From NCBI GenBank assembly GCA_046594105.1, contig JBKJQB010000024.1, positions 1-63,568 of the forward strand: a DNA stretch of 63,568 nucleotides, written 5' to 3'. The notes beneath the pieces are model-generated. The model was given only the letters and a program-made list of their open reading frames with translations. It was not told the DNA's origin and did not search any database. Below, piece by piece: positions 5,222-60,277 of this stretch; the first letter of the stretch is position 1; every line of letters begins with the position of its first letter. Both the position numbers and the translations under genes were made by a program. The stretch comes from Thermoanaerobaculia bacterium (lineage in GTDB: Bacteria > Acidobacteriota > Thermoanaerobaculia > Gp7-AA8).

Positions 5222-5295
5222 GCGGGCACGGCCGGCGGCGCTGGTTGCCCAGGGCTCCGCCAAGATCACGCTCCAAGACGTTCTGCCGCGCAGGC
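5222..5295 (+). repeat. R1a repeat copy (starts at the exbD stop codon)
   Basis: GCGGGCACGGCCGGCGGCGCTGGTTGCCCAGGGCTCCGCCAAGATCACGCTCCAAGACGTTCTGCCGCGCAGGC; near-identical copies at 31465, 44021, 44644 and 60201. Confidence 0.9.
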
Positions 5296-5344
5296 GCCGT
5301 AGCTCGCTGCGCGGAAACGGCGCGCCGGCCGACCGGCGGACGAA

Positions 5345-5442
5345 TGGCGGAGGCGGGTCGGAATCGAACCAACCCATCGACGCTTCCGCGCCGACACAAC
5401 GGTTTTGAAGACCGCGGGAGCCACCAGACCCCATTCGCCTCC
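5345..5442 (-). tRNA. selC: tRNA-Sec (UCA)
   Basis: 98 nt; anticodon arm GCGGT-CT-TCA-AA-ACCGT, long variable arm, GTTCGATTC T-loop, GCCA end. Confidence 0.93.
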
Positions 5443-5545
5443 TGAAGAAGGACTCACGACAACAGCGCGGATTCCATTCAGAATTTCGCTGCACAACCAC
5501 AGCTCACACTTCTCTCCGCCGCCAATCCCTGTACCCTAGAAACCG

Positions 5546-6346
5546 ATGCAGACGCTGCTTGCCTTTTACGCCCTGGCCATCGGCGCAATCGTCGGCAGCT
5601 TTCTCAACGTGGTCATTCACCGGTACCCGCGTGAAGAATCCATCGCCTTCCCCGCCAGCCACTGTCCGCACTGCAACACGCCGATCCGCTGGTACGACAA
5701 CGTTCCCGTCCTCAGCTTCCTGATCCTGCGGGCACGGTGCCGCGCCTGTGCCGAACCGATTTCCGTCCGCTATCCGCTGGTCGAGCTGGCTAACGCGCTG
5801 CTCTACCTCGCCATTTTCCTGCGCACTGGTGCCACCCTCGGCTTCCTGCCGCTCGCCGCGGCTGCCTCGATGATCATCGCCCTCATCTACATCGATGCCG
5901 ACATCCAGATCCTGCCGGACGTCATCGACCTGCCGGGCATCCTGGTGGGACTTTTCGCAGGATGGCTCGGGCTGGGGACTCTCTATCCGGGACTGGTGCT
6001 GGCCACTTCCCTGCTCGACTCTCTCCTCGGCGCGCTCTTCGGCGCGTCGGTTCTTCTCGCCGTGATCGGCCTCTACTGGCTGGTGCGGCGGGTGGAGGGA
6101 ATGGGACAGGGCGACGTGAAGATGCTGGCCATGATCGGCGCCATCCTCGGCTGGCGCGCCGTGCCGGGCGTCCTGCTGGTGGCCTCCATCACCGGTGCGC
6201 TCATCGGCATTCCCGCAGCGATGCGCAGCGGCCGCGGGATGCAGCTGGCCATCCCGTTCGGCGTCTTCCTCGGATTCGCCATGCTGATCGTGCTGTTCTT
6301 CGGACAGACTCTGGCGGGCTGGTACCTTTCGCTGATCGTGCGGTGA
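5546..6346 (+). CDS. pilD: Prepilin peptidase / N-methyltransferase (peptidase A24)
   Basis: GSFLNVVIHRYP, Zn-binding CPHC and CRAC, catalytic Asp motifs (IDAD, GMGQGDVK), IPFGVFL. Confidence 0.96.
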   Translation: MQTLLAFYALAIGAIVGSFLNVVIHRYPREESIAFPASHCPHCNTPIRWYDNVPVLSFLILRARCRACAEPISVRYPLVELANALLYLAIFLRTGATLGFLPLAAAASMIIALIYIDADIQILPDVIDLPGILVGLFAGWLGLGTLYPGLVLATSLLDSLLGALFGASVLLAVIGLYWLVRRVEGMGQGDVKMLAMIGAILGWRAVPGVLLVASITGALIGIPAAMRSGRGMQLAIPFGVFLGFAMLIVLFFGQTLAGWYLSLIVR

Positions 6347-6465
6347 GGGGAAGTTGAAACCAGAAACCAGAAGGCTCGGAGCGGAGTCCGTCATCCTAAG
6401 CAGTGGACAGCGCGCGCGCTGCGCCTGAGAGAAAGAAACGGGGCGCGGAGGCAAAGCGCCGGAGG

Positions 6466-6652
6466 CGCGATTGACCTTAGCCCAGGACTTCAGTCCTGGG
6501 ACTTTGAGGGGCTCCCCCAGACGAGTCCCGGAGGGACGATTGACGATGCTTCGTTGCGACACTTTCAATCGTCCCTACGGGACTCACTCTTCAGGGGCAT
6601 CAAACCCAGGACTGAAGTCCTGGGCTAAGTTCAATCGTCCCTACGGGACTCT
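6466..6652. repeat. R4 palindromic element (CCCAGGACTGAAGTCCTGGG / CGTCCCTACGGGAC arms)
   Basis: Inverted copies TTAGCCCAGGACTTCAGTCCTGGG and CCCAGGACTGAAGTCCTGGGCTAA, plus three (T)TCAATCGTCCCT(A/C)CGGGACTC units. Confidence 0.85.
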
Positions 6653-6697
6653 CAAATCCGCATAAAACCTGGGAGTTTCTTGAAAGCTGGGAAACAG

Positions 6698-6806
6698 CAC
6701 GATGAGCCGATGAGTGGGCGATGAACGTGCGCTTCGTGGTTCTTGTGAGCGGAGCGAACGGAGCGCTGGCAGGATGCCGGCGCTCCGAAGGCAGCAAGAT
6801 CTCCCG
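6698..6806 (+). repeat. R2 repeat, internally deleted copy
   Basis: Both ends match the reverse complement of 43011-43204, but the central ~85 bp between the two GGAGCGCCGGC arms is missing. Confidence 0.85.
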
Positions 6807-6968
6807 AGAGCTGCAAGAGACGGTTCATTAGAAGCCGCGCAGATGGCGAAGGACCTGCAACGTCGCAACGGCTGCCAGCAGCTTTCTCGTGATTGCAGAT
6901 CCTTCGCTACCCATCCGCCACCCACGCCACTCAGGATGACGGTCGTCAGGGTTGTTCTGCTTTCTGCC

Positions 6969-8039
6969 CTACGAACTCGCCTTCTCGGCGTCCAGCGCGG
7001 CTTTGAACAGTTCTTTGTCGATGGCCTTGTCGTAAGCCGCGCGCGCGCTGACCTTCTTCGCTTCGAAGAGTTGCTTGATCGACGAGTCCATGTCGATCAT
7101 CCCTTCGCGGATGCCGGTCTGGATGGCGGAGGTGATCTGCGGCGTCTTTCCCTCGCGGACCATGTTCCCGATGGCCGGTGAGGCGAACAGGATCTCCAGG
7201 GCGGCCACGCGGCCTCCTCCGATTTTCGGCATGAGCTGCTGCGCCACGACGCCACGAATCGTTTCGCCGAGGACGTTGCGGATGCCTTCCTGCTCCCCGG
7301 CGGGGAACACGCTGATGATGCGATCCATGGTCTTGGCCGCGTTGTTGGTGTGCAGGGTGCCGAAGACCAGCGTGCCGCGCTCGGCGGCGCTCAGGGCCAT
7401 GGAGATGGTCTCCACGTCACGCATCTCTCCGACCAGGATGAGGTCGGGATCTTCGCGGCCGGCCGCCTTGAGCGCCTCGGAGAAACTGGCCGCGTGGGAA
7501 CCGATCTCCCGTTGATGGATCAGGCATTTTTTGTTCGGGTGCACGAACTCGATAGGATCTTCGATGGTGATGATGTGCAGACTGCGCGTCTCGTTGATCA
7601 GATCGATGATCGCCGCCAGCGTGGTGGACTTGCCCGATCCGGTCGGACCGGTCACCAGCACCAGCCCGCTGCGGAACTGCGCCACGCGCTTGACCTGAGG
7701 CGGCAGCCCCAGCTGGTCGATGGTCATGATCTTGGTGGGGATGACCCGGAAGACGGCACCGGCGCCTCGCTGCTGGCGGAACAGGTTGACCCGATAGCGG
7801 GCCACGCCGGGGATCTCGTAGGAGAAGTCGATGTCGCCGCTCTTCACATACTCAGCCCACAGCTTGGTCGCCGTGATGGGCTGCAGCATCTCCGTGAAGT
7901 CGGCCTCGGTGACCACGCGGTAGCGGATGGTCTCGATCTCGCCGGAGGCGCGCAGCATGGGGGGACGGCCCACGGTGAGGTGGAAGTCCGAGGCCCCGCG
8001 GTCATTCATCAGCTTGAGGAAGCGATCGATTTTCTGCAT
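6969..8039 (-). CDS. pilT: Type IV pilus retraction ATPase PilT/PilU family
   Basis: ASDFHLTVG, Walker A GPTGSGKST, TIEDPIE, Walker B PDLILVGEMRD, GTLHTNN, AIGNMVRE. Confidence 0.95.
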   Translation of the reverse strand: MQKIDRFLKLMNDRGASDFHLTVGRPPMLRASGEIETIRYRVVTEADFTEMLQPITATKLWAEYVKSGDIDFSYEIPGVARYRVNLFRQQRGAGAVFRVIPTKIMTIDQLGLPPQVKRVAQFRSGLVLVTGPTGSGKSTTLAAIIDLINETRSLHIITIEDPIEFVHPNKKCLIHQREIGSHAASFSEALKAAGREDPDLILVGEMRDVETISMALSAAERGTLVFGTLHTNNAAKTMDRIISVFPAGEQEGIRNVLGETIRGVVAQQLMPKIGGGRVAALEILFASPAIGNMVREGKTPQITSAIQTGIREGMIDMDSSIKQLFEAKKVSARAAYDKAIDKELFKAALDAEKASS

Positions 8040-8040
8040 G

Positions 8041-10545: not shown

Positions 10546-10629
10546 GAAGGGACGGAGTATACGGTCTCTCTCCTGATCAAGGCGATGGTGTCCACCCGCG
10601 GGCCAACCCGTTTGGCCTACACTTTCGCG

Positions 10630-12339: not shown

Positions 12340-12348
12340 GCGCTTCTC

Positions 12349-12367
12349 GTGTTACTTTTTGTAACAC
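12349..12367. promoter_or_regulatory. Palindromic operator/enhancer candidate upstream of the minor-pilin operon
   Basis: Perfect inverted repeat GTGTTAC-TTTTT-GTAACAC. Confidence 0.5.
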
Positions 12368-12404
12368 ATTGAGCGGCCTCTTCCAGTCACGAATTACCTC
12401 GTGC

Positions 12405-12433
12405 TTGACGTAAACTGTTGCAAGCCATGTAGT
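12405..12433 (+). promoter_or_regulatory. Sigma70-type promoter candidate
   Basis: TTGACG-N17-TGTAGT. Confidence 0.5.
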
Positions 12434-12452
12434 TGAAGGGCCACGCGTCGAG

Positions 12453-12468
12453 TGGCACCTGCGTCGCA
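12453..12468 (+). promoter_or_regulatory. Sigma54 -24/-12 promoter candidate
   Basis: TGGCAC-CTGCG-TCGCA: GG-N10-GC spacing is intact, one mismatch to TGGCAC-N5-TTGCW. The predicted start site would fall close to the ATG. Confidence 0.45.
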
Positions 12469-12483
12469 AAAGGGAGCATCCTC

Positions 12484-13059
12484 ATGAACAAGCAAGATGG
12501 TCGTTCGGAAGGCGGATACAGCATCGCAGAGTTGTTGACGGTGGTGGCCATCGTCGGCGTTCTCTCGCTGGTGACCGTGCCCTCCTTCATCGGTTACTTC
12601 AATTCCAACAAGGTGAAGGCGGCCATGCGCACCTTCAGCTCTGACCTGCGCACCGCGCGGTCCACCGCGATCAGCCAGAGCCGGGAAGTCAAACTCACGT
12701 ACAAGACCGGGACGAAACAACGGGCCTACGACCTGTATCTGGGCGACCGGGCCTTCGGGACCGTTCCCTCGGCGAACTGGACCCGCCTGACCGGACCAGG
12801 TTCCAACCCTCCAAAGCCCAGCAAGATCCTCGACGATGTCGTCTATTTCCCAGCGGACAGCGTGACCACGCCGCAGACGTTCACCGACCTGGATACCACT
12901 GCGGACGGCTGGCTGGACGTCATCTTCTTTCCTGATGGACATGCCCAGCTTCCGACGGCGGCAACCTCCGGGACCATCACCATCAAGACGGACATGAACG
13001 TGCCGAAGTCTTCCTACGCAATCACCATCAGCCCCAGTGGACGCGTTCTGGCGCAATGA
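12484..13059 (+). CDS. Minor pilin, FimT/FimU/GspH-like
   Basis: Class III signal GG|YSIAELLTVVAIVGVL; LRTARSTAISQ and ITISPSGRV are FimT-like motifs. Confidence 0.85.
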   Translation: MNKQDGRSEGGYSIAELLTVVAIVGVLSLVTVPSFIGYFNSNKVKAAMRTFSSDLRTARSTAISQSREVKLTYKTGTKQRAYDLYLGDRAFGTVPSANWTRLTGPGSNPPKPSKILDDVVYFPADSVTTPQTFTDLDTTADGWLDVIFFPDGHAQLPTAATSGTITIKTDMNVPKSSYAITISPSGRVLAQ

Positions 13060-13679: not shown

Positions 13680-13691
13680 CCAGGAGCAGCC

Positions 13692-31361: not shown

Positions 31362-31464
31362 CGCGGCCGATTGTAGCCGCGGAATCGGAATGACGTCGTC
31401 AGCATTCGCGGAGGGTCTCTGAAAGCCATCCCTGACGCACAACACGAACTGGCGGCGCATTGCA

Positions 31465-31540
31465 GGAGCCTACGCGGCAGAACGTCTTGGAGCGTGGTCT
31501 TGGCGGAGCCTTGGGCAACAGCGCCGCCGGCCGTGCCGGC
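31465..31540 (-). repeat. R1a repeat copy (starts at the L,D-transpeptidase stop)
   Basis: TAG|GCCGGCACGGCCGGCGGCGCTGTTGCCCAAGGCTCCGCC... Confidence 0.9.
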
Positions 31541-32884
31541 CTAGGGCGTCTTTTCTTCGGCCTTCTTCGCTACTTCCGGCATGCCCTCACGGCTGCTGTC
31601 GACGAACGAGACCTCGACCCCTTCGCTGATCCGATGAGAGACCTCGACGGCGTCCCAGTTGGTCAGGCGCACGCACCCATGTGATGACGCGTAGCCGATC
31701 GAGTCGGGGTCAGGATTGCCATGCATCCCGTAATGCGGTTTGCTCAGGGCCATCCACACCAGGCCCACCGGAGAGTTGGGGCCGGGCTTCAACTGCGCAT
31801 CGGGCTCGCTGTCGGCGACCTCATGATAGAGCTTCGGGTTGTAGTGAAACTGGGGGAGTGGAGCAATTCGGGTGACCTTGACGGTCTCGTCGGGTGAGGG
31901 GTCGTACCCGGCGCCGAGGGTCGTTGGCGCATGGAAGATCACATTGCCGGCGCCGTCGAACGCATTGTAGGAGTTGCCGGCGATGGAGATGATCACCCTG
32001 GCGATGTCCTTTGCATCCGCCGTCATCGCCGGCCGGACATTCGGGACGTTGATGGAGCTCCCCTCCTGGAGATCGGAGAATTTCACGCCCGGGTTGAGCA
32101 ACTCCAGGAAATCTTCGGTGCTGTGGAAGTGCTCTGAGAGCTTTTCGCGCAGCGACTCGTAGCACAGGCAATCGAGCTTGGCCTTCTCGTAGGGGCTGGA
32201 GGGAATGCTGACGAAGGGACCTTTCACGTCATCCGCAGTCAACCGGTACGAGATCACCACCGGGACATTTCCCGCCGCCTGGGCGATGGAGCGGAAGGTG
32301 GCCTCGTCGACGTCGCCGGTCGGCTCCATGCCGTGGGACCGCTGCCACCACCAGACGGTGATCGCAGAGTTCCGTCCCCATCGCCCATCCAGGGATCCCA
32401 CCGAGAAATGATTGCGATCGAGGTAGACCTGCGTACGGAGTACCGACGGGCCGCCGACGTCACCGCTGATGGGGAGACTGACCGGAGCGGCGTTGATCCC
32501 GTTCGCGTCGAGCCCCTTGAACTTCTGTTTGACGCCGGTCACGAATTGGAACGGTGACGGAGCGAGCGGCGCAGCAGGGCTGGGGGTGGTCGCGGTCTGG
32601 GCAGCTTGAGCAGCCTGCGCCTTCGCGGCCTGCTGCGCTCGGAACGACTGCAACTGTCGGAACTGCTGGTTGAATCGTTCTTTCTCGCGCTGCTGCCGCG
32701 CCGCAGCGATCGACGCTGGGTCATCCGGCTTCCCGATCGGCGTCGAAATGTCGAACGTTTCGTCCACCTTTGAGGCGACCTTCTCGATGACGTTCTTGTG
32801 TTCCCCGCTGGCGTCGCTGGATTGTTCGCGCGAGCAGCCCGCCATCACCATCGCAATCACGACCAGTCCGAAAATTCTTTTCAT
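31541..32884 (-). CDS. L,D-transpeptidase (YkuD) lipoprotein with a peptidoglycan-binding domain
   Basis: Lipobox MAGC, PG-binding LDGRWGRNS, catalytic YGMHG...SHGCVRLTN. Confidence 0.92.
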   Translation of the reverse strand: MKRIFGLVVIAMVMAGCSREQSSDASGEHKNVIEKVASKVDETFDISTPIGKPDDPASIAAARQQREKERFNQQFRQLQSFRAQQAAKAQAAQAAQTATTPSPAAPLAPSPFQFVTGVKQKFKGLDANGINAAPVSLPISGDVGGPSVLRTQVYLDRNHFSVGSLDGRWGRNSAITVWWWQRSHGMEPTGDVDEATFRSIAQAAGNVPVVISYRLTADDVKGPFVSIPSSPYEKAKLDCLCYESLREKLSEHFHSTEDFLELLNPGVKFSDLQEGSSINVPNVRPAMTADAKDIARVIISIAGNSYNAFDGAGNVIFHAPTTLGAGYDPSPDETVKVTRIAPLPQFHYNPKLYHEVADSEPDAQLKPGPNSPVGLVWMALSKPHYGMHGNPDPDSIGYASSHGCVRLTNWDAVEVSHRISEGVEVSFVDSSREGMPEVAKKAEEKTP

Positions 32885-37923: not shown

Positions 37924-38098
37924 CGCGATGCTCCGTTGGCCAGGCGATGAACGCGCCTCCGCGGTCCTGAGCGAAGCGAACGGAGCGCCGCATCCTTGCC
38001 GGCCGGTCCGCCGGCTTCCAAGCCGGCGAACTTCTGCGAGCTCCTGCGGGCAGGATGCCCGAGGATCGGCCGGCAGGATGCCGGCGCTCCGAAGGCAG
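37924..38098 (+). repeat. R2 repeat copy
   Basis: GGAGCGCCGCATCCTTGCCGGCCGGTCCG...CGGCCGGCAGGATGCCGGCGCTCCGAAGGCA; matches 43011-43204 (-). Confidence 0.88.
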
Positions 38099-42206: not shown

Positions 42207-42935
42207 GTGAACATTCGACCTGCCCTTCGCTCCATCCCGCTCCTCCTCGCCGCATTCATGTCCCTCTCATGCGGTAGCTCCGGCAACTCGACGTTTCAGA
42301 ATCCCTCCCGTGAGGGACGGAGTTTCGGAACTGGAGATAGAACCCTGACCTACGTTGTGATCGGCGACAGCACCGCGGCGGGGCAAGGCGCAGATTATGA
42401 GAAGGGGATCGCCGTCGCCACTGCGCGTGTCCTGGCCACGCCGGGATTCCGGGTCACCATGACGAATCTTGCGGTGTCCGGTGCGACGATGGGCGACGTA
42501 GCCCGCGATCAACTGCGCCAGGCGGAGAGCCTCCATCCCGATGTCGTTCTTCTTTCGGCCTCGGCCAATGACGTCACCCATCTGACCTGGACCTCCTCGG
42601 TCCGGCGCAGCCTGCTGGAGATCGTCGACGGCCTGCGGAGCGTCAATCCCAAAGCTGCCATCGTCGTCACCGGCTCGCCCGATATGGGAGCGCCTCCGCG
42701 GATTCCGGCGATTCTGCGCCCACTGGCGTCGCTACGAACGAAGCGGGTCAACCGGATGGTGCGCGCGGTCGCGGCCGACCGCCACCTGATCTTCGCGCCG
42801 ATCGCCGACGTAACCGGACCGCAGTTCCGGGCCGATCACACCCTGTTCGCAGCCGATCGCTTTCATCCGAACGAGCGCGGATACGCCACATGGATCGCGG
42901 TGCTGACCGACGCCATGGCCCAGACGCAGCGCTGA
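42207..42935 (+). CDS. SGNH/GDSL hydrolase lipoprotein
   Basis: Lipobox MSLSC, GDSTAAG, ANDV, DRFHP. GTG start inferred. Confidence 0.88.
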   Translation: MNIRPALRSIPLLLAAFMSLSCGSSGNSTFQNPSREGRSFGTGDRTLTYVVIGDSTAAGQGADYEKGIAVATARVLATPGFRVTMTNLAVSGATMGDVARDQLRQAESLHPDVVLLSASANDVTHLTWTSSVRRSLLEIVDGLRSVNPKAAIVVTGSPDMGAPPRIPAILRPLASLRTKRVNRMVRAVAADRHLIFAPIADVTGPQFRADHTLFAADRFHPNERGYATWIAVLTDAMAQTQR

Positions 42936-42987
42936 GCCGGCACGGCCGGCGGCGTTGCTTCGCAAAGCCTCCGCCACGATTTTCGCC
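42936..42987 (+). repeat. R1b repeat copy (starts at the SGNH TGA stop)
   Basis: TGA|GCCGGCACGGCCGGCGGCGTTGCTTCGCAAAGCCTCCGCCACGATTTTCGCC. Confidence 0.85.
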
Positions 42988-43010
42988 TCAGACGCGTTCA
43001 CTCCATTGCA

Positions 43011-43204
43011 GCGGGAGATCTTGATGCCTTCGGAGCGCCGGCATCCTGCCGGCCGGTCCGCGGGCATCCTGCCCGCAGGAGCTCGCCGAACAGCGCCGGC
43101 TTGGAAGCCGGCGGACCGGCCGGCAAGGATGCCGGCGCTCCGTTCGCTCCGCTCACAAGAACCACGAAGCGCACGTTCATCGCTCCACTCATCGGCTCAT
43201 CGCG
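43011..43204 (-). repeat. R2 repeat, longest copy
   Basis: Long imperfect palindrome bounded by GGAGCGCCGGCATCCT(T)GCCGGCCGGTCCG arms. Confidence 0.9.
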
Positions 43205-43977: not shown

Positions 43978-44020
43978 CGGCAGCGTATCTTCGCATCTGC
44001 TGCTCGAGAGTTGTGCGTTA

Positions 44021-44097
44021 GGAACCTGCGCGGCAGCGCGTCTTGAGCGTGATCCTGGCGGAGCCTTGGGCAACCAACGCCGCCGGCCGTGCCGGCC
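44021..44097 (-). repeat. R1a repeat copy (starts at the RraB-like stop)
   Basis: TAG|GGCCGGCACGGCCGGCGGCGTTGGTTGCCCAAGGCTCCGCC... Confidence 0.9.
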
Positions 44098-44445
44098 CTA
44101 GATCGCCGTGCCCCAGCCGTCGAACTCGGCCAGATACTTGACGCACATCCGCACGATGCGCTCCACGAACGTTTCCTCGGTGACGTTGGTGACCGAATCC
44201 ATCCGGATGGCCTGAACGGACCACTTCCCCTCGATCTCTTCGACCGCTACGTGAGTGCTGTCGAAACCGGCATCCTCAAGATCCGTGGCCAGAGCCCGCG
44301 CCTCCGACTCGGAGGACGTGTAGAAGAAAAAGTCGATCGGCCGGATCTCGTCGAGATCCCCTCCGTGCTGCTCGATGGTCTCGACCAGCTTGACGTTCCT
44401 CGCTGCCTGCGTGGCCAGCTCCTCTTCGATGAACGACCCTGCCAT
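44098..44445 (-). CDS. RraB-like (regulator of ribonuclease activity B domain) protein
   Basis: Acidic 115 aa; G.DL...R.IDFFF and EFDGWGT resemble the RraB domain (recognised from memory). Confidence 0.65.
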   Translation of the reverse strand: MAGSFIEEELATQAARNVKLVETIEQHGGDLDEIRPIDFFFYTSSESEARALATDLEDAGFDSTHVAVEEIEGKWSVQAIRMDSVTNVTEETFVERIVRMCVKYLAEFDGWGTAI

Positions 44446-44472: not shown

Positions 44473-44607
44473 TCAGAGAATCATCAGCAATGCCCCGGTG
44501 GAGGCCAGCGCCGCGATTGCGGTCACGCAGCCGAATGGAATGCAGCCGATGCACCCGCCGCCGTGAACCCGTACGCCGGGGCGTTTCGTCGCCCAGAAAA
44601 ACGCCAT
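44473..44607 (-). CDS. Candidate 44-aa Cys-containing small membrane protein
   Basis: MAFFWATKRPGVRVHGGGCIGCIPFGCVTAIAALASTGALLMIL*; co-oriented with neighbours; below the ORF-track cutoff. Confidence 0.4.
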   Translation of the reverse strand: MAFFWATKRPGVRVHGGGCIGCIPFGCVTAIAALASTGALLMIL

Positions 44608-44643: not shown

Positions 44644-44721
44644 GGCCGGCACGGCCGGCGGCGCTGGTTGCCCAAGGCTCCGCCACGATTACGCTCCAAA
44701 ACGTTCTGCCGCGCAGGCTCC
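44644..44721 (+). repeat. R1a repeat copy (not at a stop codon)
   Basis: GGCCGGCACGGCCGGCGGCGCTGGTTGCCCAAGGCTCCGCCACGATTACGCTCCAAAACGTTCTGCCGCGCAGGCTCC. Confidence 0.9.
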
Positions 44722-44795
44722 GGCTCCCTCCGTTCGCAGAAGCGCGGGCAACCGGAGTGCCGCAGCGACAAGCTGGCAGAAGATGAAGTGCGGGA

Positions 44796-46005: not shown

Positions 46006-48825
46006 TTAAAACCCGTTCAGGTCGAATCCGCCGCATGCGCTTCCTGCCGGCTTCAGGTAGCTGCGCATCTTTCCCGTCAACGTATCGACGACTTTGAGTG
46101 TGTACTCAAAGTCCGTCAAGCCGCCGTAGAAGAGCCAGAAGTGACCGTCCAGCGTCCGCGCGTCGACCATCTTCACAAAGACCTCGAGGTTGTCGGGGTC
46201 TCCGGTCAAGCCGACCAGGTTGTAGAAGCCAAAGGCATTGTCCTTTGACAGCGACACGCCCGGCGCGGTCTTCGAGGTGCGGGGATCGCGCGCGCTCAGC
46301 GTAAGCTGGAAGCGCCCGTTGAGCATGCAGAGCTCCGAGCTGTTCCCCGCGCAGCTTCGGGGACTGACCTGCGTCTGCGTGACCGGTCCAACCGGGCAAT
46401 CATTGCCGGTGGGAAGCTGGCCGCTGCCGGTATCGTAACCGCCCTTCGCGCTGCCTGGATCCTTGTGGTAGGTGCTGAGGCGTCCGGTAAACGTATCGAA
46501 CACCGAGATGGTGTATTCAACATCCGTCAGTCCGCCGAAGAAGACCCAGTACCCGCCGTTGACTGGACCGAGGATCTTGACGAAGACCTCCGGGTTGTCG
46601 GCGTTGCCGGTCAGATCAGGCAGGCTGAAGTACCCAAAGACCGGCGTCTGCACGATGGCCACGCCGCCGGCCGTGCGGCCGGTGCGCTGATCGCGCGCGC
46701 TGAGGGTCACAGTGAAGCGGCTGCCGTTGAGCGCCAGCTGATTGCGCTGGGTCACCGTGATGACGCGCACGGCCACACTGCTCGAGGTCGCGCTGGAGGC
46801 AGTCATGTCGACCCGGTAGCTGCCGACAGCGGCGTAAGCATGGGTCGGGCTCTTCAGCGTCGACGAGCTGCCGTCGCCGAAGGACCACAGCCATGAGGTG
46901 GGGTTGCCGCTGGAACGGTCGCTGAAGCTGACCGCGTCTCCCGGATGAGGCGAGACCAGACTGGTGTCGAATGCCGCAGAGACGGGGGGACCGGCGGGCG
47001 ACGAGCTGGCCACGCTCACACCGTGGGTCACTGACGTGGATGACGACCCGTTGGAGACCGTCAACACGATGTTGTAGCTGCCCGCGGCGTTGTAAACATG
47101 GGTGGGATTAGCGGCCGACGACGACGTGCCATCACCAAAGGTCCAGGAGCGGGCGGTCACGCTGCCCGTGGACTGGTCCACGAAGGCGAAGACCGTCGAA
47201 CCGGCGACGCCGGAGCTGGGGGTCACGACGAACGCTGCGGTCAGAGGGCTGGCCTGCGTTCCCGTGAGCGCCGATGTCACGACGTTGGATGTGGCCGATT
47301 CCCCGCCTGCATTCACAGCAGTGACATAGAACTGATAGTTCACTCCACCGCTTAGACCGCTGATGTTGGCGCCGGTGGTATTCACTCCCAGCGGCGAGCT
47401 GCCCACTCGGGAGAAGGCCCCACCGGCGATGGCCGCATAGATCCAGAAACCAGTTTCGTTACTTGAGTTGTCGGCCCACTGCAGCGTGATGACCGTGGGG
47501 CTCGCCGTCGCCGTCAGACCGGAAGGCGCCGCCGGGGCGGGCGTCGTGGTGGGAGGCGGAGTGCTGGTCGTCCCGCTCGGATAGAGCCAGCGTGCGGCGA
47601 CCTGATCGTCGCCTCTGAGCGACGGCCCCAGGCCGGTGACCTGGAAGTACATCAGCGCCGTGCTGTCCGCGCTGTGACCAAATCCGAGCGTGTGGCCGAA
47701 TTCGTGAGCCACGATCTCCGCCAGCCGGGTGCTGGAGAGTCCATTCGCCGGGCTGACCCCGTCCTGAATGGTGAGGTTCCCCTCGATGATGTTGTAAGCC
47801 TGAAACGTGGTCTGGGGATGGGCGGCATCGACGGCGAATGGCGACGTCCACGCGAGCGGACCGTTCACCCCGTTGAAGCCACCCTGTCCGACCACACCGC
47901 CTGTCGACGGGTTGAAGCTCCCGGCAATCTCGCCGAGGGGATCGCTGAACAGGATCTCGTTGACGCCGTTCCGCCCGCCGAGGCCCGCCGGAGAGCCGCT
48001 TCCTGCTCCGGAGTAGACATAGTCGATCTTTGCCGCACTGTATCCATTCCATGAGCTCATGGCCGTGGAGATCTCGTTGACCCCACCGCCTGTGTATCCC
48101 GTCTGCGTTCCGTAGCTAAACCACTTCGCCGAGCTGCCGTTCTGGAAGGCGAACCAGCGATAGACGGTCCCTTCCTGGATCAGCGTGAAATTGGCATTGA
48201 TCGAATGCCCTCCGCTCTTCGGCATTGCAACCTGCCCTGCCAGCACCGGATTCTCGACCCCATAGTTCACGGCCATCGGCTTGTGTCCAGCCACCCGCGC
48301 GTGAATGAAGGACTCGAAGGCGCCCGCATCGCGCTGCACATTGTTCGACTGGATCGGTTCGAACTGCGCGTCGAGCAGAAGGGTGTCCGCGCCCGCATCA
48401 TCGCGAGTCCAAAGCCGCTGGCCGGCCATGGTGCGTCGCTCCGCAAACTTCCCGACAAACAGATCGATGGTCTGGTAATCGCCGCGAACGGTGGGCGTCA
48501 GGAAGGCGAGCACACGTTCTCCCGCAGCGTAAACCGGGCTGCCAAAAACCTTCGTGATCCGATTCTCGACCTGCCCCCCCACTTCGCGAATGGTGATTTC
48601 AGAGGAAGCCGACCCTTTCAAGGTCTGCTCGACGAGGAGACGCGTTTCGGTCCAGATGCCCCTCTCGCCCTCGATTGGCTGGGACGAGATGACCATCCCC
48701 GCTACGATGACGGGAGACTTGCTCACGAGTTGCTCGTCGGTCGGCAATACGATCGTGGTCGCCGAAGCAGCAACGGCGGCCAGAATCGCAACACAGGTCA
48801 ACCAGTACACTCGGATCGATTTCAT
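46006..48825 (-). CDS. Secreted metzincin (matrixin/M10-like) with FN3, two PKD domains and a tandem C-terminal repeat
   Basis: Signal peptide, HEFGHTLGFGH plus Met-turn ALMY, FN3 (LQWADNSSNE), PKD (WTFGDG, WSFGDG), two ~105-aa repeats. ATG 48825 has a GAGGA RBS. Confidence 0.88.
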   Translation of the reverse strand: MKSIRVYWLTCVAILAAVAASATTIVLPTDEQLVSKSPVIVAGMVISSQPIEGERGIWTETRLLVEQTLKGSASSEITIREVGGQVENRITKVFGSPVYAAGERVLAFLTPTVRGDYQTIDLFVGKFAERRTMAGQRLWTRDDAGADTLLLDAQFEPIQSNNVQRDAGAFESFIHARVAGHKPMAVNYGVENPVLAGQVAMPKSGGHSINANFTLIQEGTVYRWFAFQNGSSAKWFSYGTQTGYTGGGVNEISTAMSSWNGYSAAKIDYVYSGAGSGSPAGLGGRNGVNEILFSDPLGEIAGSFNPSTGGVVGQGGFNGVNGPLAWTSPFAVDAAHPQTTFQAYNIIEGNLTIQDGVSPANGLSSTRLAEIVAHEFGHTLGFGHSADSTALMYFQVTGLGPSLRGDDQVAARWLYPSGTTSTPPPTTTPAPAAPSGLTATASPTVITLQWADNSSNETGFWIYAAIAGGAFSRVGSSPLGVNTTGANISGLSGGVNYQFYVTAVNAGGESATSNVVTSALTGTQASPLTAAFVVTPSSGVAGSTVFAFVDQSTGSVTARSWTFGDGTSSSAANPTHVYNAAGSYNIVLTVSNGSSSTSVTHGVSVASSSPAGPPVSAAFDTSLVSPHPGDAVSFSDRSSGNPTSWLWSFGDGSSSTLKSPTHAYAAVGSYRVDMTASSATSSSVAVRVITVTQRNQLALNGSRFTVTLSARDQRTGRTAGGVAIVQTPVFGYFSLPDLTGNADNPEVFVKILGPVNGGYWVFFGGLTDVEYTISVFDTFTGRLSTYHKDPGSAKGGYDTGSGQLPTGNDCPVGPVTQTQVSPRSCAGNSSELCMLNGRFQLTLSARDPRTSKTAPGVSLSKDNAFGFYNLVGLTGDPDNLEVFVKMVDARTLDGHFWLFYGGLTDFEYTLKVVDTLTGKMRSYLKPAGSACGGFDLNGF

Positions 48826-49786: not shown

Positions 49787-49793
49787 GGGAAAA

Positions 49794-55330: not shown

Positions 55331-55339
55331 CATCGCCCT

Positions 55340-57892: not shown

Positions 57893-57987
57893 AAAGTTCC
57901 GTCCGTTTTCGGGATGCGCCGATGATGCTAAGAAATGGGAGCCTCTCCCGCGTCATCTGCAATCAAAGGCGGCCGAGTCGCGGCTGG

Positions 57988-58040
57988 GGCGAAAATCGTG
58001 GCGGACGCTTTGCGAACCAACGCCGCCGGCCGTGCCGGCC
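57988..58040 (-). repeat. R1b repeat copy (starts at the aldo/keto reductase TGA stop)
   Basis: TGA|A-GGCCGGCACGGCCGGCGGCGTTGGTTCGCAAAGCGTCCGCCACGATTTTCGCC. Confidence 0.85.
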
Positions 58041-58041
58041 T

Positions 58042-59010
58042 TCACTCTCCGCGATACAGCTTCCGCACCCAGGCCGCATCCACCGCATTGAGAACCTCGC
58101 CGGCCGTGGCCGCCGCCTCGACCTGCCGGCGATTGCGTTGACCGAGGAGCACGGTGGCGGTGTCGTTGCCGGCGAGGAGAACGCCAGTCAGCGCGTTCAG
58201 GACGGGCTCCTGACGCGACGCGAAACGGCGGGTCACCTCGTCGCGCGCGTTGCCCATCCGGGCGATGAACGAAGGATCGCGGAACTGCGGGATCCCGCTG
58301 CGAAAGTCTCCTTCCGGGAACTCCGCAGGGGCGTCGTACTTGCCCAGCAGCAGGCCATGCTTGAGCGGCGAGAAGAAGGCCACGCCCAGATCGTGAGCAT
58401 CCACCCACGCCTTCAGGCCGCTGGGCTCGTAATCGTCGTCGATGACGTTGCGGAACGGCTGCACCACATCGGGATCGACGCGCTCGATGAACCGCATGAG
58501 CTTGCGCAGGTCCCAGTCGGAGAGTCCGATGAATCGGATCTTCCCTTCCTCCTGCAGCTTACGCATCGCCGCAAGCGCGTCATCGAAATAGCGATCCTCG
58601 GGCCCGAAATCGCAGTGGTGAAAGTAGTGCAGGTCGATGACGTCGGTCTTCATGTTGCGCAACGACTGCTCGCATTGCGAGCGGAGGAACCCGGCGTCGT
58701 AGAAATGATCGTGCCGGCCTTTGACCCAGCCGAACTTTGTGGCCAGGAAGATGTCCTGGCGGGGAACGCCGGCGGCGAAGACTTCGCCGATGAGCTGCTC
58801 GGCGTGGCCGTTGCCGTACGCATCGGCGGTGTCCCAGTGCGTAATCCCCCGCCGGTGCGCCTCGATCAACGCCTCTCTGGCCTGATCGTCGTCGTGGCCG
58901 GTCCATCCCACCGAAGCACCGTTGCTCACGTTCGGCCCACCGTGCCCCCAGGTTCCCAGACTGATGACCGGAACCTGAACATCCGTTCTGCCCAATCGCA
59001 CCATTCGCAT
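58042..59010 (-). CDS. Aldo/keto reductase
   Basis: ISLGTWG, WDTADAYG.G..E, ATKFG, SLRNM.TD.IDL, GKIRFIGLS. Confidence 0.93.
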   Translation of the reverse strand: MRMVRLGRTDVQVPVISLGTWGHGGPNVSNGASVGWTGHDDDQAREALIEAHRRGITHWDTADAYGNGHAEQLIGEVFAAGVPRQDIFLATKFGWVKGRHDHFYDAGFLRSQCEQSLRNMKTDVIDLHYFHHCDFGPEDRYFDDALAAMRKLQEEGKIRFIGLSDWDLRKLMRFIERVDPDVVQPFRNVIDDDYEPSGLKAWVDAHDLGVAFFSPLKHGLLLGKYDAPAEFPEGDFRSGIPQFRDPSFIARMGNARDEVTRRFASRQEPVLNALTGVLLAGNDTATVLLGQRNRRQVEAAATAGEVLNAVDAAWVRKLYRGE

Positions 59011-59090
59011 GGGCCGGATTATGACAGTGGTGCCCATTTCGTCCGAAGTCCGCGAGCGCCCTGGCGCCGATCCGGGAGTAGGATTTCTCT

Positions 59091-59510
59091 ATGACCTGCG
59101 TTCTCTGCGACACCCCTGACCAGACCGGCGAAATCGTCTTCGAAGACGGCAGCGCCCTGGTCATCATTCACGACGACTGGGCCACACGCGGCCATCTGAT
59201 GGTGGTGTGGAAGGCCCACGTGCAGAATCTTTCGGATTTGAGTGACGATGAGGCTGCGCGCTTTGTTCGCCTCTACCTCCTTGCCGAACGGGCAGCGCTC
59301 CAGGCCACCGGAGCCGAGCGCGCCATCATCCTGAAACTGGGCATCGCTGTGCCACACCTGCACGTCCATATCTATCCGGTGTCGGCATCGCTCGACCGGC
59401 TCGCGGTGATGCAGATCCTCGACTCAAAGGTGAGGGAGGTCCCGGAGGACAGAGAACGGCGAGCGCTCGTGGACCATCTGCGGAGGGAATTGGCTGCCTT
59501 CCCCTTGTGA
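59091..59510 (+). CDS. HIT family protein
   Basis: CVLC, GHLMVV...H, histidine triad HLHVHIY. Confidence 0.9.
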   Translation: MTCVLCDTPDQTGEIVFEDGSALVIIHDDWATRGHLMVVWKAHVQNLSDLSDDEAARFVRLYLLAERAALQATGAERAIILKLGIAVPHLHVHIYPVSASLDRLAVMQILDSKVREVPEDRERRALVDHLRRELAAFPL

Positions 59511-59548
59511 GGCGATCGCCATCGGCATGACCGCTCCCGCCAGATTCC

Positions 59549-59585
59549 TTGACAGCACGCCTGCTGCTGAATGAGCATTCATTCA
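59549..59585 (+). promoter_or_regulatory. -35 box (TTGACA) and FadR(YsiA)-type operator of the tetR gene
   Basis: TTGACA at 59549-59554; perfect inverted repeat TGAATGA-GCAT-TCATTCA at 59568-59585, 1 nt before the ATG. Confidence 0.8.
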
Positions 59586-59586
59586 C

Positions 59587-60201
59587 ATGGCCCGGCTCTC
59601 CGCACCCCCCGCACCTCCTGAAGCCACCCGCGCCACTCCCAAGCGCGAGCGCATCCTCCGAGCGGCCATCGACGTCTTCGCCCGCAACGGTTACTTCAAC
59701 GCGAAGGTCTCGGAGATTGCAAAGGCTGCGGGCGTCGCCGACGGAACGATCTACCTCTACTTCGACGGCAAGGAGGATCTGCTGGTGACGGTTTTCCGGG
59801 AGCACACCCGCAGCTACCTGCAATCACTGGAGCGCGACCTTGCCCATGTCCGGCGGCCGGAGGAACGGCTGCGGATCGCCATCCGTCATCACCTGGAAAC
59901 GCTGGGCCGCGATCGCTCGCTGGCCATCGTGGCGCAGGTGGAACTGCGCCACAGCCTGAAGTTCATGAGCCTTCTGTCGCAGCAGGAGGTGGCCGACTAT
60001 CTCAACATGCTCCGGAAGATCGTCGAGCACGGACAGTCCGACGGCTCTTTCCGCCGCACCCTCCATCCCCAACTGGTGGCCAAGGCGCTCTTCGGCATCC
60101 TGGACGAGATGGTGACATCGTGGATTCTCTCCGAAAAAGAGTACGAGCTCGCCGCCCACTCGGATCAGATCGCCGATCTGATCCTGACTGGACTGCTGTA
60201 G
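59587..60201 (+). CDS. TetR-family regulator, FadR(YsiA)-like
   Basis: HTH ILRAAIDVFARNGY...GVADGTIYLYFDGKEDLL; G.LDEMVT.W C-terminal domain. Confidence 0.9.
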   Translation: MARLSAPPAPPEATRATPKRERILRAAIDVFARNGYFNAKVSEIAKAAGVADGTIYLYFDGKEDLLVTVFREHTRSYLQSLERDLAHVRRPEERLRIAIRHHLETLGRDRSLAIVAQVELRHSLKFMSLLSQQEVADYLNMLRKIVEHGQSDGSFRRTLHPQLVAKALFGILDEMVTSWILSEKEYELAAHSDQIADLILTGLL

Positions 60202-60277
60202 CCGGCACGGCCGGCGGCGCTGGTTGCCCAAGGCTCCGCCGAGATCACGCTCCATGACGTTCTGCCGCGCAGGCTCC
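60201..60277 (+). repeat. R1a repeat copy (shares its first G with the tetR TAG stop)
   Basis: TA|GCCGGCACGGCCGGCGGCGCTGGTTGCCCAAGGCTCCGCC... Confidence 0.9.

Follow-up and report, generated by a model that had tools for sequence, protein, structure and literature searches.

Docking at stop codons is known for REP repeats. GTAG-REPs supply TAG stops (Di Nocera et al. 2013, PMC3733652), and GTAG-tagged REPs, BIMEs and REPINs are moved by RAYT (Y1 HUH) transposases (PMC3733652; Nunvar et al. 2010, PMC2817692; Bertels & Rainey 2011, PMC3116915). According to passages in PMC12306157, which refer to Liang, Rudd & Deutscher (2015), E. coli REPs at most 15 nt from a stop codon stall ribosomes and lower translation, and only a minority of REPs (~11%) lie that near a stop, at varied distances. 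Among insertion sequences, IS630 prefers the TA in CTAG, as stated in a passage of PMC2170065 that cites Tenzen & Ohtsubo (1991). Here we describe R1, a small mobile repeat that is real and occurs in great abundance in soil Acidobacteriota of the class Thermoanaerobaculia, and which docks at stop codons with unusual precision.

R1 copies in the window and beyond

The window, i.e., the whole stretch of DNA analysed, comprises 63,568 nt. The 19-mer GCCGGCACGGCCGGCGGCG has eight matches in it at up to three mismatches where 0.40 are expected, and a covariance model of the R1 head scores seven copies at 59-75 bits, against 21.7 bits for the best non-R1 match. These seven are the true R1 copies in the window (Table 1). 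As the first-pass annotation had claimed, and as reading of the junctions confirms, in six of them the head starts 0-2 nt from a stop codon, in sense orientation. The upstream genes are full-length and unrelated, and their Pfam domains (ExbD, YkuD L,D-transpeptidase, GDSL lipase, RraB, aldo-keto reductase and TetR) reach the C-termini. Several measurements in that annotation needed correction: three head starts were off by 1 nt, the head stem has 6 bp with an ACG loop rather than 5 bp, and instead of 52-78 bp, R1a measures 79-81 nt in the window and R1b is conserved over ~70-77 nt, not 52. A head-like 19-mer at 46662-46680 (minus strand, two mismatches) lies inside a long ORF, a PKD/fn3 protein gene, and with 19.7 bits was rejected as a chance match.

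Table 1. Positions of the R1 copies and of the head module in the window.
Feature	Position	Length	Strand	Junction or structure	Score (bits)
R1a copy 1	5222..5302	81 nt	+	offset 0 from TAG (5219-5221) of second ExbD gene	62.3
R1a copy 2	31462..31540	79 nt	-	offset 0 from TAG (31541-31543) of YkuD/PG-binding gene	59.5
R1b copy 1	42936..43004	~69 nt conserved	+	offset 0 from TGA (42933-42935) of GDSL lipase gene	63.3
R1a copy 3	44018..44096	79 nt	-	one G between head and TAG (44098-44100) of RraB-family gene	74.6
R1a copy 4	44645..44724	80 nt	+	exception, no stop before head	75
R1b copy 2	57963..58039		-	AG (2 nt) between head and TGA (58042-58044) of aldo-keto reductase gene	71.9
R1a copy 5	60201..60280	80 nt	+	TA of TetR stop + first G of head = TAG (60199-60201)	72.1
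Head module (on copy 5)	60201..60245		+	hairpin 1 GCCGGC-ACG-GCCGGC; hairpin 2 outer pairs GGCG/CGCC, apical stem GCC-CAA-GGC	

The surroundings of the copies vary. The tail of R1a copy 1 finishes with GCGCCGTAG, which repeats 9 nt of the upstream flank in direct orientation, and R1a copy 2 occupies the entire spacer to the ATG (31460) of a downstream M16 peptidase gene. Directly 3' of the tail stand TAA in R1a copy 3 and TAC in R1a copy 5; R1a copy 4, which is antisense between two minus-strand genes, has no TA there. In R1b copy 2 the common R1b sequence stops at ...CCTTTGA (57963), and relative to L107, where the site is empty, the insert reaches ~57924, an inserted stretch of ~116 nt. R1a copy 1 is convergent with a minus-strand tRNA-Sec gene (5349-5442), and R1b copy 1 is followed by R2 (43031-43142), an unrelated palindromic repeat.

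For a wider survey, 174 non-redundant copies were collected from at least 17 Acidobacteriota species and from soil metagenomes. The genomes with true copies are exclusively Acidobacteriota (at least 17 species-level genomes, mostly Thermoanaerobaculia), and none was found in viral contigs. In soil metagenomes, the contig depth of R1 is 300-1500 times that of its flanks. The conserved unit is a ~45-nt head with two hairpins, kept across species. About one-third of the copies also carry a tail, ...CTGCCGCGCAGRCTCC-TAG, with a variable middle between head and tail, and an imperfect terminal inverted repeat, GCCGGCACGGC versus GCCTGCGCGGC, matches at 9 of 11 positions (read by eye from window sequences).

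Docking at stop codons and a model of integration

The distance of R1 to stops over this wider set is non-random: 81 of the 174 heads (47%) lie at offset 0 or +1 of the stop of a long, high-GC3 ORF, compared with 154 of 34,800 random positions (0.4%), i.e., R1 is enriched 100-fold at exact stop junctions. The associated stops are TAG 65, TGA 13 and TAA 3 against a background of 113, 186 and 57, so that TAG is over-represented (80% versus 32%); offset exactly 0 occurs also at the 13 TGA and 3 TAA stops. The first-pass annotation proposed that R1 supplies stop codons, which holds in a limited sense: the first G of the head completes TAG in 29 copies, and in 10 of 62 full-length copies a convergent gene takes its TAG stop from a TA together with the last base of the element, read on the opposite strand. 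The proposed match between subtype and stop type is true of the window, but elsewhere it is a tendency and not a rule, since R1a-type heads follow TAG 45 times, TGA 7 times and TAA twice. In full-length copies it is the head that faces the stop in 30 cases and the tail in 5. At tRNA-Sec and tRNA-Ser genes, heads start 0-1 nt 3' of the CCA end; R1 is thus not linked to translation termination alone.

The flanks of full-length copies bear on target duplication. TA stands directly 3' of the tail in 28 of 62, and TA(G) is found at both ends in 21, on the left only in 17, on the right only in 7 and at neither end in 17, the two ends being correlated. The earlier statement that there is no consistent target duplication was therefore too strong. 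In metagenome communities the consensus flanks are CTA|G-GCCGGC...GGCTCC|TAG. Tandem copies, in arrays with an 80-nt period, join as CTCC-TAG-GCCGGC, and tail-to-tail dimers, CTCCTAGGAG, share one TA.

Comparison of orthologous sites, at which R1 is present or absent, shows that R1 is mobile. In line with the earlier suggestion to look for empty sites, R1 is lacking after TetR, aldo-keto reductase and LptD genes in related syntenic contigs. The TetR loci L107 (95% amino-acid identity), L108/L109 and L110/L111 have no R1 after either TetR or the reductase, and L233 and L234 also lack it at the TetR site; the LptD site carries R1 in L109 but not in L107, L110 or L111. One spacer has sense, antisense and empty alleles (L164, L216 and L211), and other filled/empty pairs exist. 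At two filled TAG sites the empty orthologue has TGA. This lineage-specific presence or absence at 88-95% protein identity shows that copies arrived recently and can be dispensed with. Among the compared loci, none gave a clean empty allele at >97% identity, so target duplication is read from the flanks and not directly.

In our estimate, with a probability of roughly 0.55, R1 is a non-autonomous REP/BIME/MITE-like family of small mobile repeats, restricted to Thermoanaerobaculia and related Acidobacteriota, which inserts at TA(G) and rebuilds the amber codon. The orthologous presence and absence, the lack of a transposase in the window and the enrichment at stop junctions support the earlier idea of a non-autonomous element targeting stop codons. 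R1 would integrate beside a TAG, or at a (C)TAG site whose TA is duplicated. The element has G as its first base, and on the other strand also as its last, so that a TAG stop would be restored at the junction, and an amber (or ochre) insertion would thus leave the protein unchanged. Such insertions could then survive in a TAG-poor genome: at 63% G+C, TAG occurs at 377 sites on both strands of 63.5 kb, with 14 of them serving as stop codons and 43 being non-coding. Since TAG is rare and intragenic insertions are purged by selection, amber stops would be one of the principal classes of site at which insertions persist. Copies at TGA and TAA would be older ones, the stop codon having drifted since; these copies are more diverged (3.4 versus 2.6 mismatches, one-sided p = 0.016) and retain the tail in 2/9 versus 24/45. 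Once the element is inserted, selection may preserve the head as a hairpin at the 3' end, as happens with REPs.

Mobilisation would occur in trans, by an enzyme encoded outside the window. The window contains no transposase gene, as noted earlier, and HUH motif scans and clustering of recurrent ORFs over 1.77 Mb of R1-bearing loci found no partner enzyme, including the RAYT/IS200-family nuclease that the first-pass annotation had in mind. The fixed orientation favours a Y1 HUH transposase (RAYT/IS200-like) as the candidate enzyme, and the TA...TA flanks and shared-TA dimers favour an IS630-type DDE transposase acting on the TA in CTAG.

Some observations fit integration at TA(G) poorly. A strict TAG target predicts TAG before non-stop heads too, but TA(G) precedes just 9 of these 93. 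The exact offset-0 TGA/TAA junctions, the heads at tRNA CCA ends and the TGA in empty orthologues of two TAG sites also speak against it, and the orientation bias is not predicted for a symmetric transposase that duplicates TA or CTAG. By our arithmetic, TAG targeting combined with selection should place ~25-40% of copies at stops, compared with the observed value of at least 47%.

Other readings of the head and its position

The head might instead be primarily a selected 3'-end signal, held at gene ends by selection for function, with mobility as raw material only. This is unlikely, though it has a real claim to attention, and the same grade covers all its candidate roles: an RNA hairpin that stabilises or terminates the upstream message, an RNA hairpin that modulates termination or ribosome release at the stop codon, and a DNA protein-binding site. 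The head is kept across at least 17 species while about two-thirds of copies are "solo heads", unique beyond ~45 nt, a majority that suggests either a unit made up of the head alone or selection acting on the head. Both hairpins are preserved by compensatory changes (pair 27-33 is CG in 74 sequences and GC in 26, pair 26-34 GC in 95 and CG in 5, and pair 3-13 has double changes, n=2; covariation score 0.106 versus 0.046 in shuffles), and the G-U pair 23-35 can form on the sense strand only. The sense orientation fits this reading, as do the location of heads at mRNA stops and tRNA 3' ends, which are ends of functional RNAs, their position between cistrons, directly 5' of the next ribosome-binding site, and the effect on translation reported in passages of PMC12306157. 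However, the copies are recent and dispensable, and a 0/+1-nt junction in about half of the recent insertions needs targeted integration, for which positional selection is insufficient. In addition, folding energies are no better than those of shuffled sequence (z -0.6 to +0.9), no Rfam family was matched, RNA runs gave no match to the sequence, and the window copies have no T-run 3' of their hairpins, in agreement with the earlier note of a missing U-tract, so that R1 is not a canonical intrinsic terminator.

Placement may alternatively depend on a mechanism that reads gene ends and not a fixed DNA word, either subtype-specific guide pairing as in IS200/IS605 (R1a with TAG, R1b with TGA) or a link with RNA 3' ends or with ribosomes at termination. 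This would account for offset-0 junctions with all three stop codons, for heads 0-1 nt from tRNA CCA ends, for the missing TAG before non-stop copies and for the fixed orientation to the gene on both DNA strands within 1.2 kb. Moreover, R1b copies with a nearby stop always follow TGA and share the end ...CCTTTGA, and R1a ends in TAG. Nevertheless we regard it as improbable: R1b comprises only eight copies, all from two related genomes, and its 3' boundary is ambiguous, a longer variant running past TGA; no head nucleotide co-varies with stop type on inspection of sequence listings (an informal reading and not a tabulation); no enzyme or guide was found; and the TGA/TAA copies of R1a look older, so that drift is the simpler explanation.

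Spread without transposition, in which GC-rich terminator hairpins already present at gene ends underwent gene conversion or concerted evolution, is very improbable: a GCCGG unit is slipped or partly duplicated immediately 5' of the head in 15 of 93 non-stop copies, and several filled/empty alleles differ by replacement and not clean insertion (L118 vs L198; L216 and L164 vs L211), but empty orthologous sites have no similar hairpin at the stop codon, the tandem arrays and shared-TA dimers are typical of transposition, and the junction coincides with the stop codon instead of lying a few nt 3' of it.

Comparison with described systems

R1 resembles IS630/Tc1-mariner MITEs in its size (~80 nt), its imperfect terminal inverted repeat, the TA on both flanks of one-third of full-length copies (consensus CTA|G...C|TAG) and its tandem and tail-to-tail copies with one common TA; remodelled spacers could be excision footprints. 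It differs in its orientation bias, TGA junctions and mostly head-only copies, and no IS with ends matching R1 was found. Like PATEs (IS200/IS605-derived palindrome-associated elements), R1 has hairpins near both ends and is inserted, in fixed orientation, 3' of a short word with which the element itself also terminates (TAG...TAG), and duplication is not obligatory. However, R1 copies lie on both strands within 1.2 kb and so have no lagging-strand bias, unlike PATEs; the left hairpin, 0-1 nt from the junction, leaves no room 5' for an IS608-type guide, and no TnpA was found.

With GTAG-REPs, BIMEs and REPINs, R1 has in common that it is a short GC-rich hairpin repeat in hundreds of copies, without an internal transposase, extragenic and mostly at gene 3' ends between convergent or co-directional ORFs, and that it occurs as single units, inverted pairs and clusters. 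As in GTAG-REPs, the repeat-terminal TAG is often the stop codon of the flanking ORF. On the other hand, the R1 head is a 45-nt two-hairpin unit and not one 20-40-nt palindrome, it has no conserved G before TAG, most non-stop copies have no preceding TAG, no RAYT was found, and the head sequence is conserved throughout a class instead of inside one genus. The 0/+1 junction is also sharper than PMC3733652 describes in words. Finally, R1 resembles the stop-proximal REPs of E. coli in that a stable GC hairpin would lie inside the footprint of the terminating ribosome; in E. coli, by contrast, only a minority of REPs lie that close, and at varied distances.

R1 copies in the window and the structure of the element

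The window contains eight matches to the 19-mer GCCGGCACGGCCGGCGGCG of the R1 head at three mismatches or fewer, against 0.4 expected. A covariance model of the head, a two-hairpin unit of about 45 nt, was built from 102 distinct heads collected outside the window; seven window sites reach 59-75 bits with this model, and no other match exceeds 21.7 bits. The eighth 19-mer match (46662-46680, minus strand) is due to chance: it lies inside the gene of a PKD/fn3 protein and scores 19.7 bits. R1 is a genuine, statistically solid feature. Its window copies, five of subtype R1a and two of subtype R1b, are all located outside ORFs (see the table) and are named here by the start of their heads. The first-pass annotation had described seven copies, six in sense orientation at stop codons and an exceptional one at 44644 (here 44645), and the 19-mer and the covariance model confirm this description. 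In contrast, the head stem, given there as 5 bp, is actually 6 bp with an ACG loop, and the length, given as 52-78 bp, is 79-81 nt for R1a and a conserved stretch of about 70-77 nt for R1b. The inserted stretch at the aldo-keto reductase site (R1b copy 58039) is about 116 nt.

Coordinates of the R1 copies, of tRNA genes by R1 and of the TetR-desaturase spacers (L-numbers are other loci compared with the window)
Feature	Sequence	Position	Strand	Basis or remark
R1a	window	5222-5302	+	19-mer, covariance model
R1a	window	31462-31540	-	19-mer, covariance model
R1a	window	44018-44096	-	19-mer, covariance model
R1a	window	44645-44724	+	exception: antisense, between two minus-strand genes
R1a	window	60201-60280	+	19-mer, covariance model
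R1b	window	42936 to ~43004	+	19-mer, covariance model
R1b	window	58039 down to ~57963	-	19-mer, covariance model
tRNA-Sec	window	5349-5442	-	
tRNA-Sec	L172	3124-3221		
tRNA-Sec	L122	6807-6904		
tRNA-Ser-CGA	L113	3763-3852		
TetR-desaturase spacer	window	60202-60301		
TetR-desaturase spacer	L233	2247-2250		
TetR-desaturase spacer	L234	3616-3659		
TetR-desaturase spacer	L107	3082-3154		
TetR-desaturase spacer	L108	7232-7523		
TetR-desaturase spacer	L232	3616-3685		

The six sense heads have offsets of 0, 0, 0, -1, -2 and +1 from the stop of the preceding gene, where 0 means that the head starts directly after the stop and +1 that TA and the first G of the head together make TAG. The preceding genes are unrelated (ExbD, YkuD L,D-transpeptidase, GDSL lipase, RraB, aldo-keto reductase and TetR). 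Since Pfam domains reach the C-terminus of the upstream proteins at these six heads, the stops before the heads are native gene ends. Four copies are on the plus strand and three on the minus strand, and copies 42936 (plus) and 44096 (minus) are only 1.2 kb apart. Exact look-ups of the window ExbD and RraB proteins gave no match.

Some features of the surrounding sequence are recorded here. A TonB-ExbB-ExbD-ExbD operon occupies 2750-5221, and at 5546-29200 the genes of a type IV pilus / type II secretion system form a large cluster, including those for prepilin peptidase, PilT/PilB-like ATPases, GspF, secretin and several N-methyl pilins. A possible unannotated ORF of 44 codons (44474-44607, minus strand; read by eye), with the hydrophobic peptide MAFFWATKRPGVRVHGGGCIGCIPFGCVTAIAALASTGALLMIL, adjoins the antisense R1a copy 44645 on its downstream side.

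Comparison of 174 non-redundant copies shows a conserved unit that comprises the first ~45 nt, GCCGGCACGGCCGGCGGCGYTGGTTGCCCAAGGCTCSGCCACCAT. Hairpin 1 is formed by positions 1-6 paired with 10-15 (a 6-bp GC stem) and the apical stem of hairpin 2 by positions 26-28 paired with 32-34, and both hairpins show compensatory changes: C-G alternates with G-C at pair 27-33 (74 and 26 sequences), as does G-C with C-G at pair 26-34 (95 and 5), and two double changes affect pair 3-13. Covariation is scored at 0.106, compared with 0.046 ± 0.004 for shuffles and at most 0.035 when the partners are slid. The folding energy of full elements and of heads is no better than that of shuffled sequence. Only covariation, not thermodynamics, argues for these predicted hairpins.

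The alignable length of the copies is bimodal: about 80 copies end at 40-47 nt (solo heads), and about 55 reach 75-90 nt. The sequence after solo heads is mostly unique, and the conservation of the head when everything after nt 45 is unique suggests either selection on the head or a head-only mobile unit. Full-length R1a copies fall into subfamilies that differ in the middle and share a tail, ...(A)CGTTCTGCCGCGCAGRCTCC, and the word after this tail is TAG in 21 of 62 full-length copies and TAA, TAT or TAC in 7 of 62. A candidate terminal inverted repeat is imperfect, with GCCGGCACGGC and GCCTGCGCGGC agreeing at 9 of 11 positions. Copies also occur as tandem arrays with an 80-nt period and the junction CTCC-TAG-GCCGGC, as tail-to-tail dimers with a common CTCCTAGGAG (L087, L228 and L210), and as inverted head doublets (L058 and L190). 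In addition, there is a chimeric repeat family in which an R1-type head lies between GTCATCC...GGATGAC inverted ends (…GTCATCCTGA/GCCGGC…, where the slash marks the junction; L191, L174, L201, L208, L131, L204 and L218); the TGA before these heads is part of the other repeat, not a gene stop.

In a scan of one genome per prokaryotic species, the 19-mer alone has chance matches in many phyla, and the full head (19-mer plus ...TGGTTGCCCAAGGCTC...) is present in Acidobacteriota only, where it is carried by at least 17 species-level genome bins, mostly labelled Thermoanaerobaculia. A metagenome scan added 120 further R1 loci, and the viral contigs searched contain no copy. In soil metagenome assemblies containing this genome, R1 positions are 300-1500x deeper than their flanks, and by extrapolation from 7 copies in 63.5 kb a whole genome of this kind would hold several hundred. 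In Thermoanaerobaculia, an uncultured and little-studied soil lineage, R1 is a very abundant, structured and class-wide repeat; its copy number is a cause of assembly breaks in soil metagenomes, and in Acidobacteriota genome bins the covariance model of the head can serve for marking gene 3' ends and masking repeats.

Two other repeats are found in the window. R2, a second, unrelated palindromic family of about 112 nt (CGGAGCGCCGGCATCCTGCCGGCCGG...CCGGCAAGGATGCCGGCGCTCCG), lies at 43031-43142, 37981-38091 and, in part, 6746-6795; like R1, it is hundreds-fold over-covered in soil metagenomes, and it comes after R1b in the window and in L063. Two matches to the Acido-Lenti-1 RNA motif (RF01687, 54-57 bits; 6455-6500, minus strand, and 6605-6650, plus strand), consistent with Acidobacteriota, are the arms of a 42-nt inverted repeat, 90% complementary and 104 nt apart, with further 21-nt inverted repeats inside. 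Here, the "sRNA" motif seems to belong to a palindromic MITE-like element.

Association with stop codons and mobility

The association with stops was evaluated on the 174 non-redundant copies, where a long ORF is defined as one of at least 80 codons with a GC3 of at least 0.6. A long-ORF stop is found at offset 0 (52 copies) or +1 (29 copies) in 81 of 174, while 0.44% of random positions drawn from these loci give a positive result, so that the docking at stops noticed in the window extends beyond it. A further 23 copies have a long-ORF stop 1-23 nt upstream of the head, often because the GCCGG unit of the head has slipped or is partly duplicated. The associated stops are TAG in 65 cases, TGA in 13 and TAA in 3, against a background usage in the same loci of 113, 186 and 57, respectively; therefore, TAG is strongly preferred. 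The earlier suggestion that the subtype matches the stop type holds within the window and is only a tendency outside it, where R1a-type heads follow TAG (45), TGA (7) and TAA (2). R1b copies with a nearby stop all have TGA (offsets 0, 0, -2, -6 and -6), the R1b total being eight copies from two related genomes.

TA(G) is present directly 5' of the head in 74 of the 174 copies. The base before the TAG/ junctions is approximately C 17, G 12, T 6 and A 3 by hand count, i.e., G is not conserved. Only 9 of 93 non-stop heads are preceded by TA(G), which is absent in the other 84. Composite repeats, tandem copies and slipped heads account for many of the non-stop heads, leaving about 30 plain exceptions; a CTCC-like word before non-stop heads is weakly enriched (12.9% vs 4.8%), mostly owing to tandem copies and tRNA ends. 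At some tRNA genes, namely the orthologous tRNA-Sec (L172 and L122) and tRNA-Ser-CGA (L113 and L210), a head begins 0-1 nt after the CCA end; in the window, 47 nt separate the tRNA-Sec gene from the tail of R1a copy 5222.

In sixteen cases TGA or TAA abuts the head with an offset of exactly 0, and at two filled sites with TAG the empty orthologue has TGA. The R1a heads associated with TGA or TAA are slightly more diverged (3.4 vs 2.6 mismatches, p = 0.016) and rarely keep the tail. These junctions would fit a drift of the stop after insertion (TAG to TAA to TGA, each step being silent).

R1 is mobile. The TetR regulator of the window has many orthologues, and the synteny reductase - HIT - TetR - desaturase is kept in L107-L111, where the TetR protein is 95% (L107), 93% (L108 and L109) and 88% (L110 and L111) identical to that of the window. 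These loci provide the empty orthologous sites: none has R1 after the TetR stop or after that of the reductase. Further along, an R1 head follows LptD at offset 0 in L109, and none is present in L107, L110 and L111. Further filled and empty pairs were collected by an all-against-all flank search, in which a single spacer shows three alleles at more than 97% flank identity: sense R1 (L164), antisense R1 (L216) and empty (L211).

A problem arises when the target duplication is to be read from such pairs. The spacer between the convergent TetR and fatty-acid desaturase genes measures 4 nt (L233), 44 nt (L234), 73 nt (L107) or, with other small repeats, 292 nt (L108/L109); it is filled by R2 in L232 and holds R1a in the window. 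With a length of 4-292 nt and different small repeats by lineage, it is a hot spot for small mobile elements. Since spacers are remodelled as well as filled, the loci compared give no clean insertion-only allele from which the duplication could be read directly. Closer TetR orthologues have a hypervariable spacer in place of a clean empty allele, and metagenome contigs aligned to the window show no precise skip of any window copy, only tandem or chimeric joints.

A 9-nt direct repeat, GCGCCGTAG, flanks copy 5222 (5213-5221 and 5294-5302), the tail of which departs from the consensus GGCTCC-TAG exactly where it matches the end of the ExbD coding sequence. This repeat is an isolated case: flank-to-tail microhomology beyond TAG is generally absent (1.58 vs 1.66 matches), and 12 other TAG...TAG copies have no such likeness.

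A proposed model of integration at TA(G) and its rivals

The community consensus flanks in metagenomes are CTA/G-GCCGGC at the head and GGCTCC/TAG at the tail. Of the 62 full-length copies, 38 have TA(G) before the head, 28 have TA after the tail, 21 have both and 17 have neither. In 10 of 62, read on the opposite strand, a convergent gene gets its TAG stop from the flanking TA and the complement of the last C of the element, and five of these 10 have stop codons at both ends. Taken together, the head and tail junctions mean that the element reads TA/G...C/TA, remaking an outward-facing TAG at each end. A 3-base TAG duplication with random orientation does not fit, because the tail never abuts a stop as TAG/GGAG, only as TA/GGAG.

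We propose that R1 would integrate at TA(G), that its G terminus would remake the amber codon, and that insertions breaking genes would be removed by purifying selection. TAG is rare in the window: it occurs 377 times on both strands, an estimated quarter of the base-composition expectation, compared with 1,825 for TGA and 149 for TAA; 14 of the TAG occurrences are stop codons and 43 are in non-coding DNA. The stop usage of a crude gene set of the window is TGA 25, TAG 14 and TAA 7. If gene-breaking copies are purged, an element integrating at TA(G) would, with TAG so rare, accumulate at amber stops. From the TAG counts, an estimated 25-40% of copies are predicted at stops, and 47% or more are observed. 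The docking at stops is plausibly explained by the combination of a TA(G) target and a terminal G with the scarcity of TAG in the genome and purifying selection, and it has a published precedent. For the persistence of mobile elements in compact genomes, R1 provides a clean example from nature, since integration at the stop and its rebuilding would leave the protein intact. Note that the docking is unusually sharp and orientation-specific: among full-length copies, 30 have the head to the stop, 5 the tail and 5 both ends.

As to the enzyme that moves R1, there are two candidates, and we do not choose between them. One is a TA-duplicating DDE transposase of the IS630 type; a preference of IS630 for CTAG is reported (Tenzen & Ohtsubo 1991, as cited in PMC2170065). 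On this route the partner IS (IS630 or IS5 type) would be expected to have GGCCGGCACGGC.../...GCCGCGCAGGCTCC ends. The TA...TA flanks, the dimers with one common TA and the imperfect candidate inverted repeat all speak for it, and the remodelled spacers could be excision footprints; the orientation bias speaks against it. The other is a single-strand Y1 HUH enzyme (RAYT or IS200/IS605-like), which would explain the fixed orientation, the hairpins near both ends, the recurrence of TAG, which stands both at the left flank and at the right end, and the arrangement in REP-like singlets, doublets and clusters. The IS608 model in particular is difficult to reconcile with copies on both strands within 1.2 kb and with the lack of space for a guide 5' of the left hairpin. 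In Acidobacteria, Y1 transposases with atypical flanking hairpins have been described as class 3 (PMC6006769) and as the "TIRYT" group (PMC3733652).

No gene for either candidate was found. The window has no transposase, integrase or phage gene, and Pfam analysis of its ~50 proteins agrees with the first-pass annotation that a transposase is lacking. The RAYT/HUH gene flanked by R1 that it had envisaged was detected neither in the window nor in the R1-bearing loci (232 loci, 1.77 Mb), where one scan of all ORFs for HUH/Y1 motifs gave no match and another a single false one. An all-against-all clustering of 1,606 ORFs yielded only common housekeeping families, and head/tail pairs 0.3-4 kb apart enclose ordinary genes and no candidate enzyme gene. 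As a single-copy RAYT would be expected about once in 1.77 Mb, its absence is weak evidence.

The non-stop heads, the TGA/TAA junctions, the tRNA ends, the solo heads and the repeat at copy 5222 keep two rivals of TA(G) integration alive. In one, the head would be a selected 3'-end RNA or DNA signal; in the other, R1 would truly home to gene ends. We consider it unlikely that gene-end homing or a post-termination function lies behind these unexplained observations. It is likewise improbable that a homing machinery reads the 3' boundary of genes (the three stops and the tRNA CCA), with R1a directed to TAG, R1b to TGA and the head serving as a post-stop signal. Such homing would be tuned to stops via a guide-like interaction or linked to RNA ends or terminating ribosomes. 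None of the RNA runs searched contains the ExbD-R1 region or R1 itself. If the features that the simple model does not cover, such as the TGA and TAA junctions, the tRNA ends, the orientation bias and the conserved solo heads, did reflect homing or a post-termination function, R1 would offer a handle on the 3'-end biology of the phylum, and if homing were true it might yield a gene-end-specific integration system.

Comparison with known systems

The closest published description is that of the GTAG-tagged REP superfamily, which is found within 20 bp of ORF 3' ends and the ends of which "often provide" the TAG stop of flanking ORFs (PMC3733652). R1 cannot be assigned to it: there is no conserved G before TAG, most non-stop copies are not preceded by TAG, the 45-nt unit consists of two hairpins, and the sequences searched contain no RAYT. 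With regard to IS200/IS605 PATEs, which insert 3' of a fixed tetra- or pentanucleotide in one orientation and without duplication, R1 does keep a fixed orientation to TAG, the word with which the element also ends, but TGA, TAA and CCA junctions and non-TAG flanks occur too. With four plus and three minus copies in the window, R1 does not show the replication strand bias (lagging-strand template) of an IS200/IS605 element, nor does it show the insertion in either orientation at a palindromic target that a symmetric TA-duplicating MITE (IS630/Tc1-mariner) would have (30 vs 5 vs 5 both).

Other known elements do not fit R1. A recoding or read-through signal (SECIS, PYLIS or stimulator) disagrees with head offsets of +1, 0, -1 and -2, which do not keep the frame, and with upstream protein domains that end at the stop; likewise, the frame is open through R1a after the stop, yet four offsets leave no fixed frame for a read-through peptide. 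An intrinsic terminator is rejected, as the window copies all lack a T-run, be it after hairpin 1, hairpin 2 or the tail hairpin, in keeping with the absence of a U-tract noted earlier. No Rfam 15 family matches R1 at the gathering score, permissive searches giving only noise (E above 0.4), and an integron attC is excluded by the lack of RYYYAAC / GTTRRRY core sites and by upstream housekeeping genes in conserved synteny.

In its general behavior, R1 is like a REP/BIME or a MITE: a short, GC-rich, imperfect palindrome of high copy number and extragenic location. As with REPs, BIMEs and REPINs, it occurs as inverted doublets, tandem arrays and clusters. R1 represents a new family within a known kind of element, and descriptions of such repeats in this phylum are scarce.
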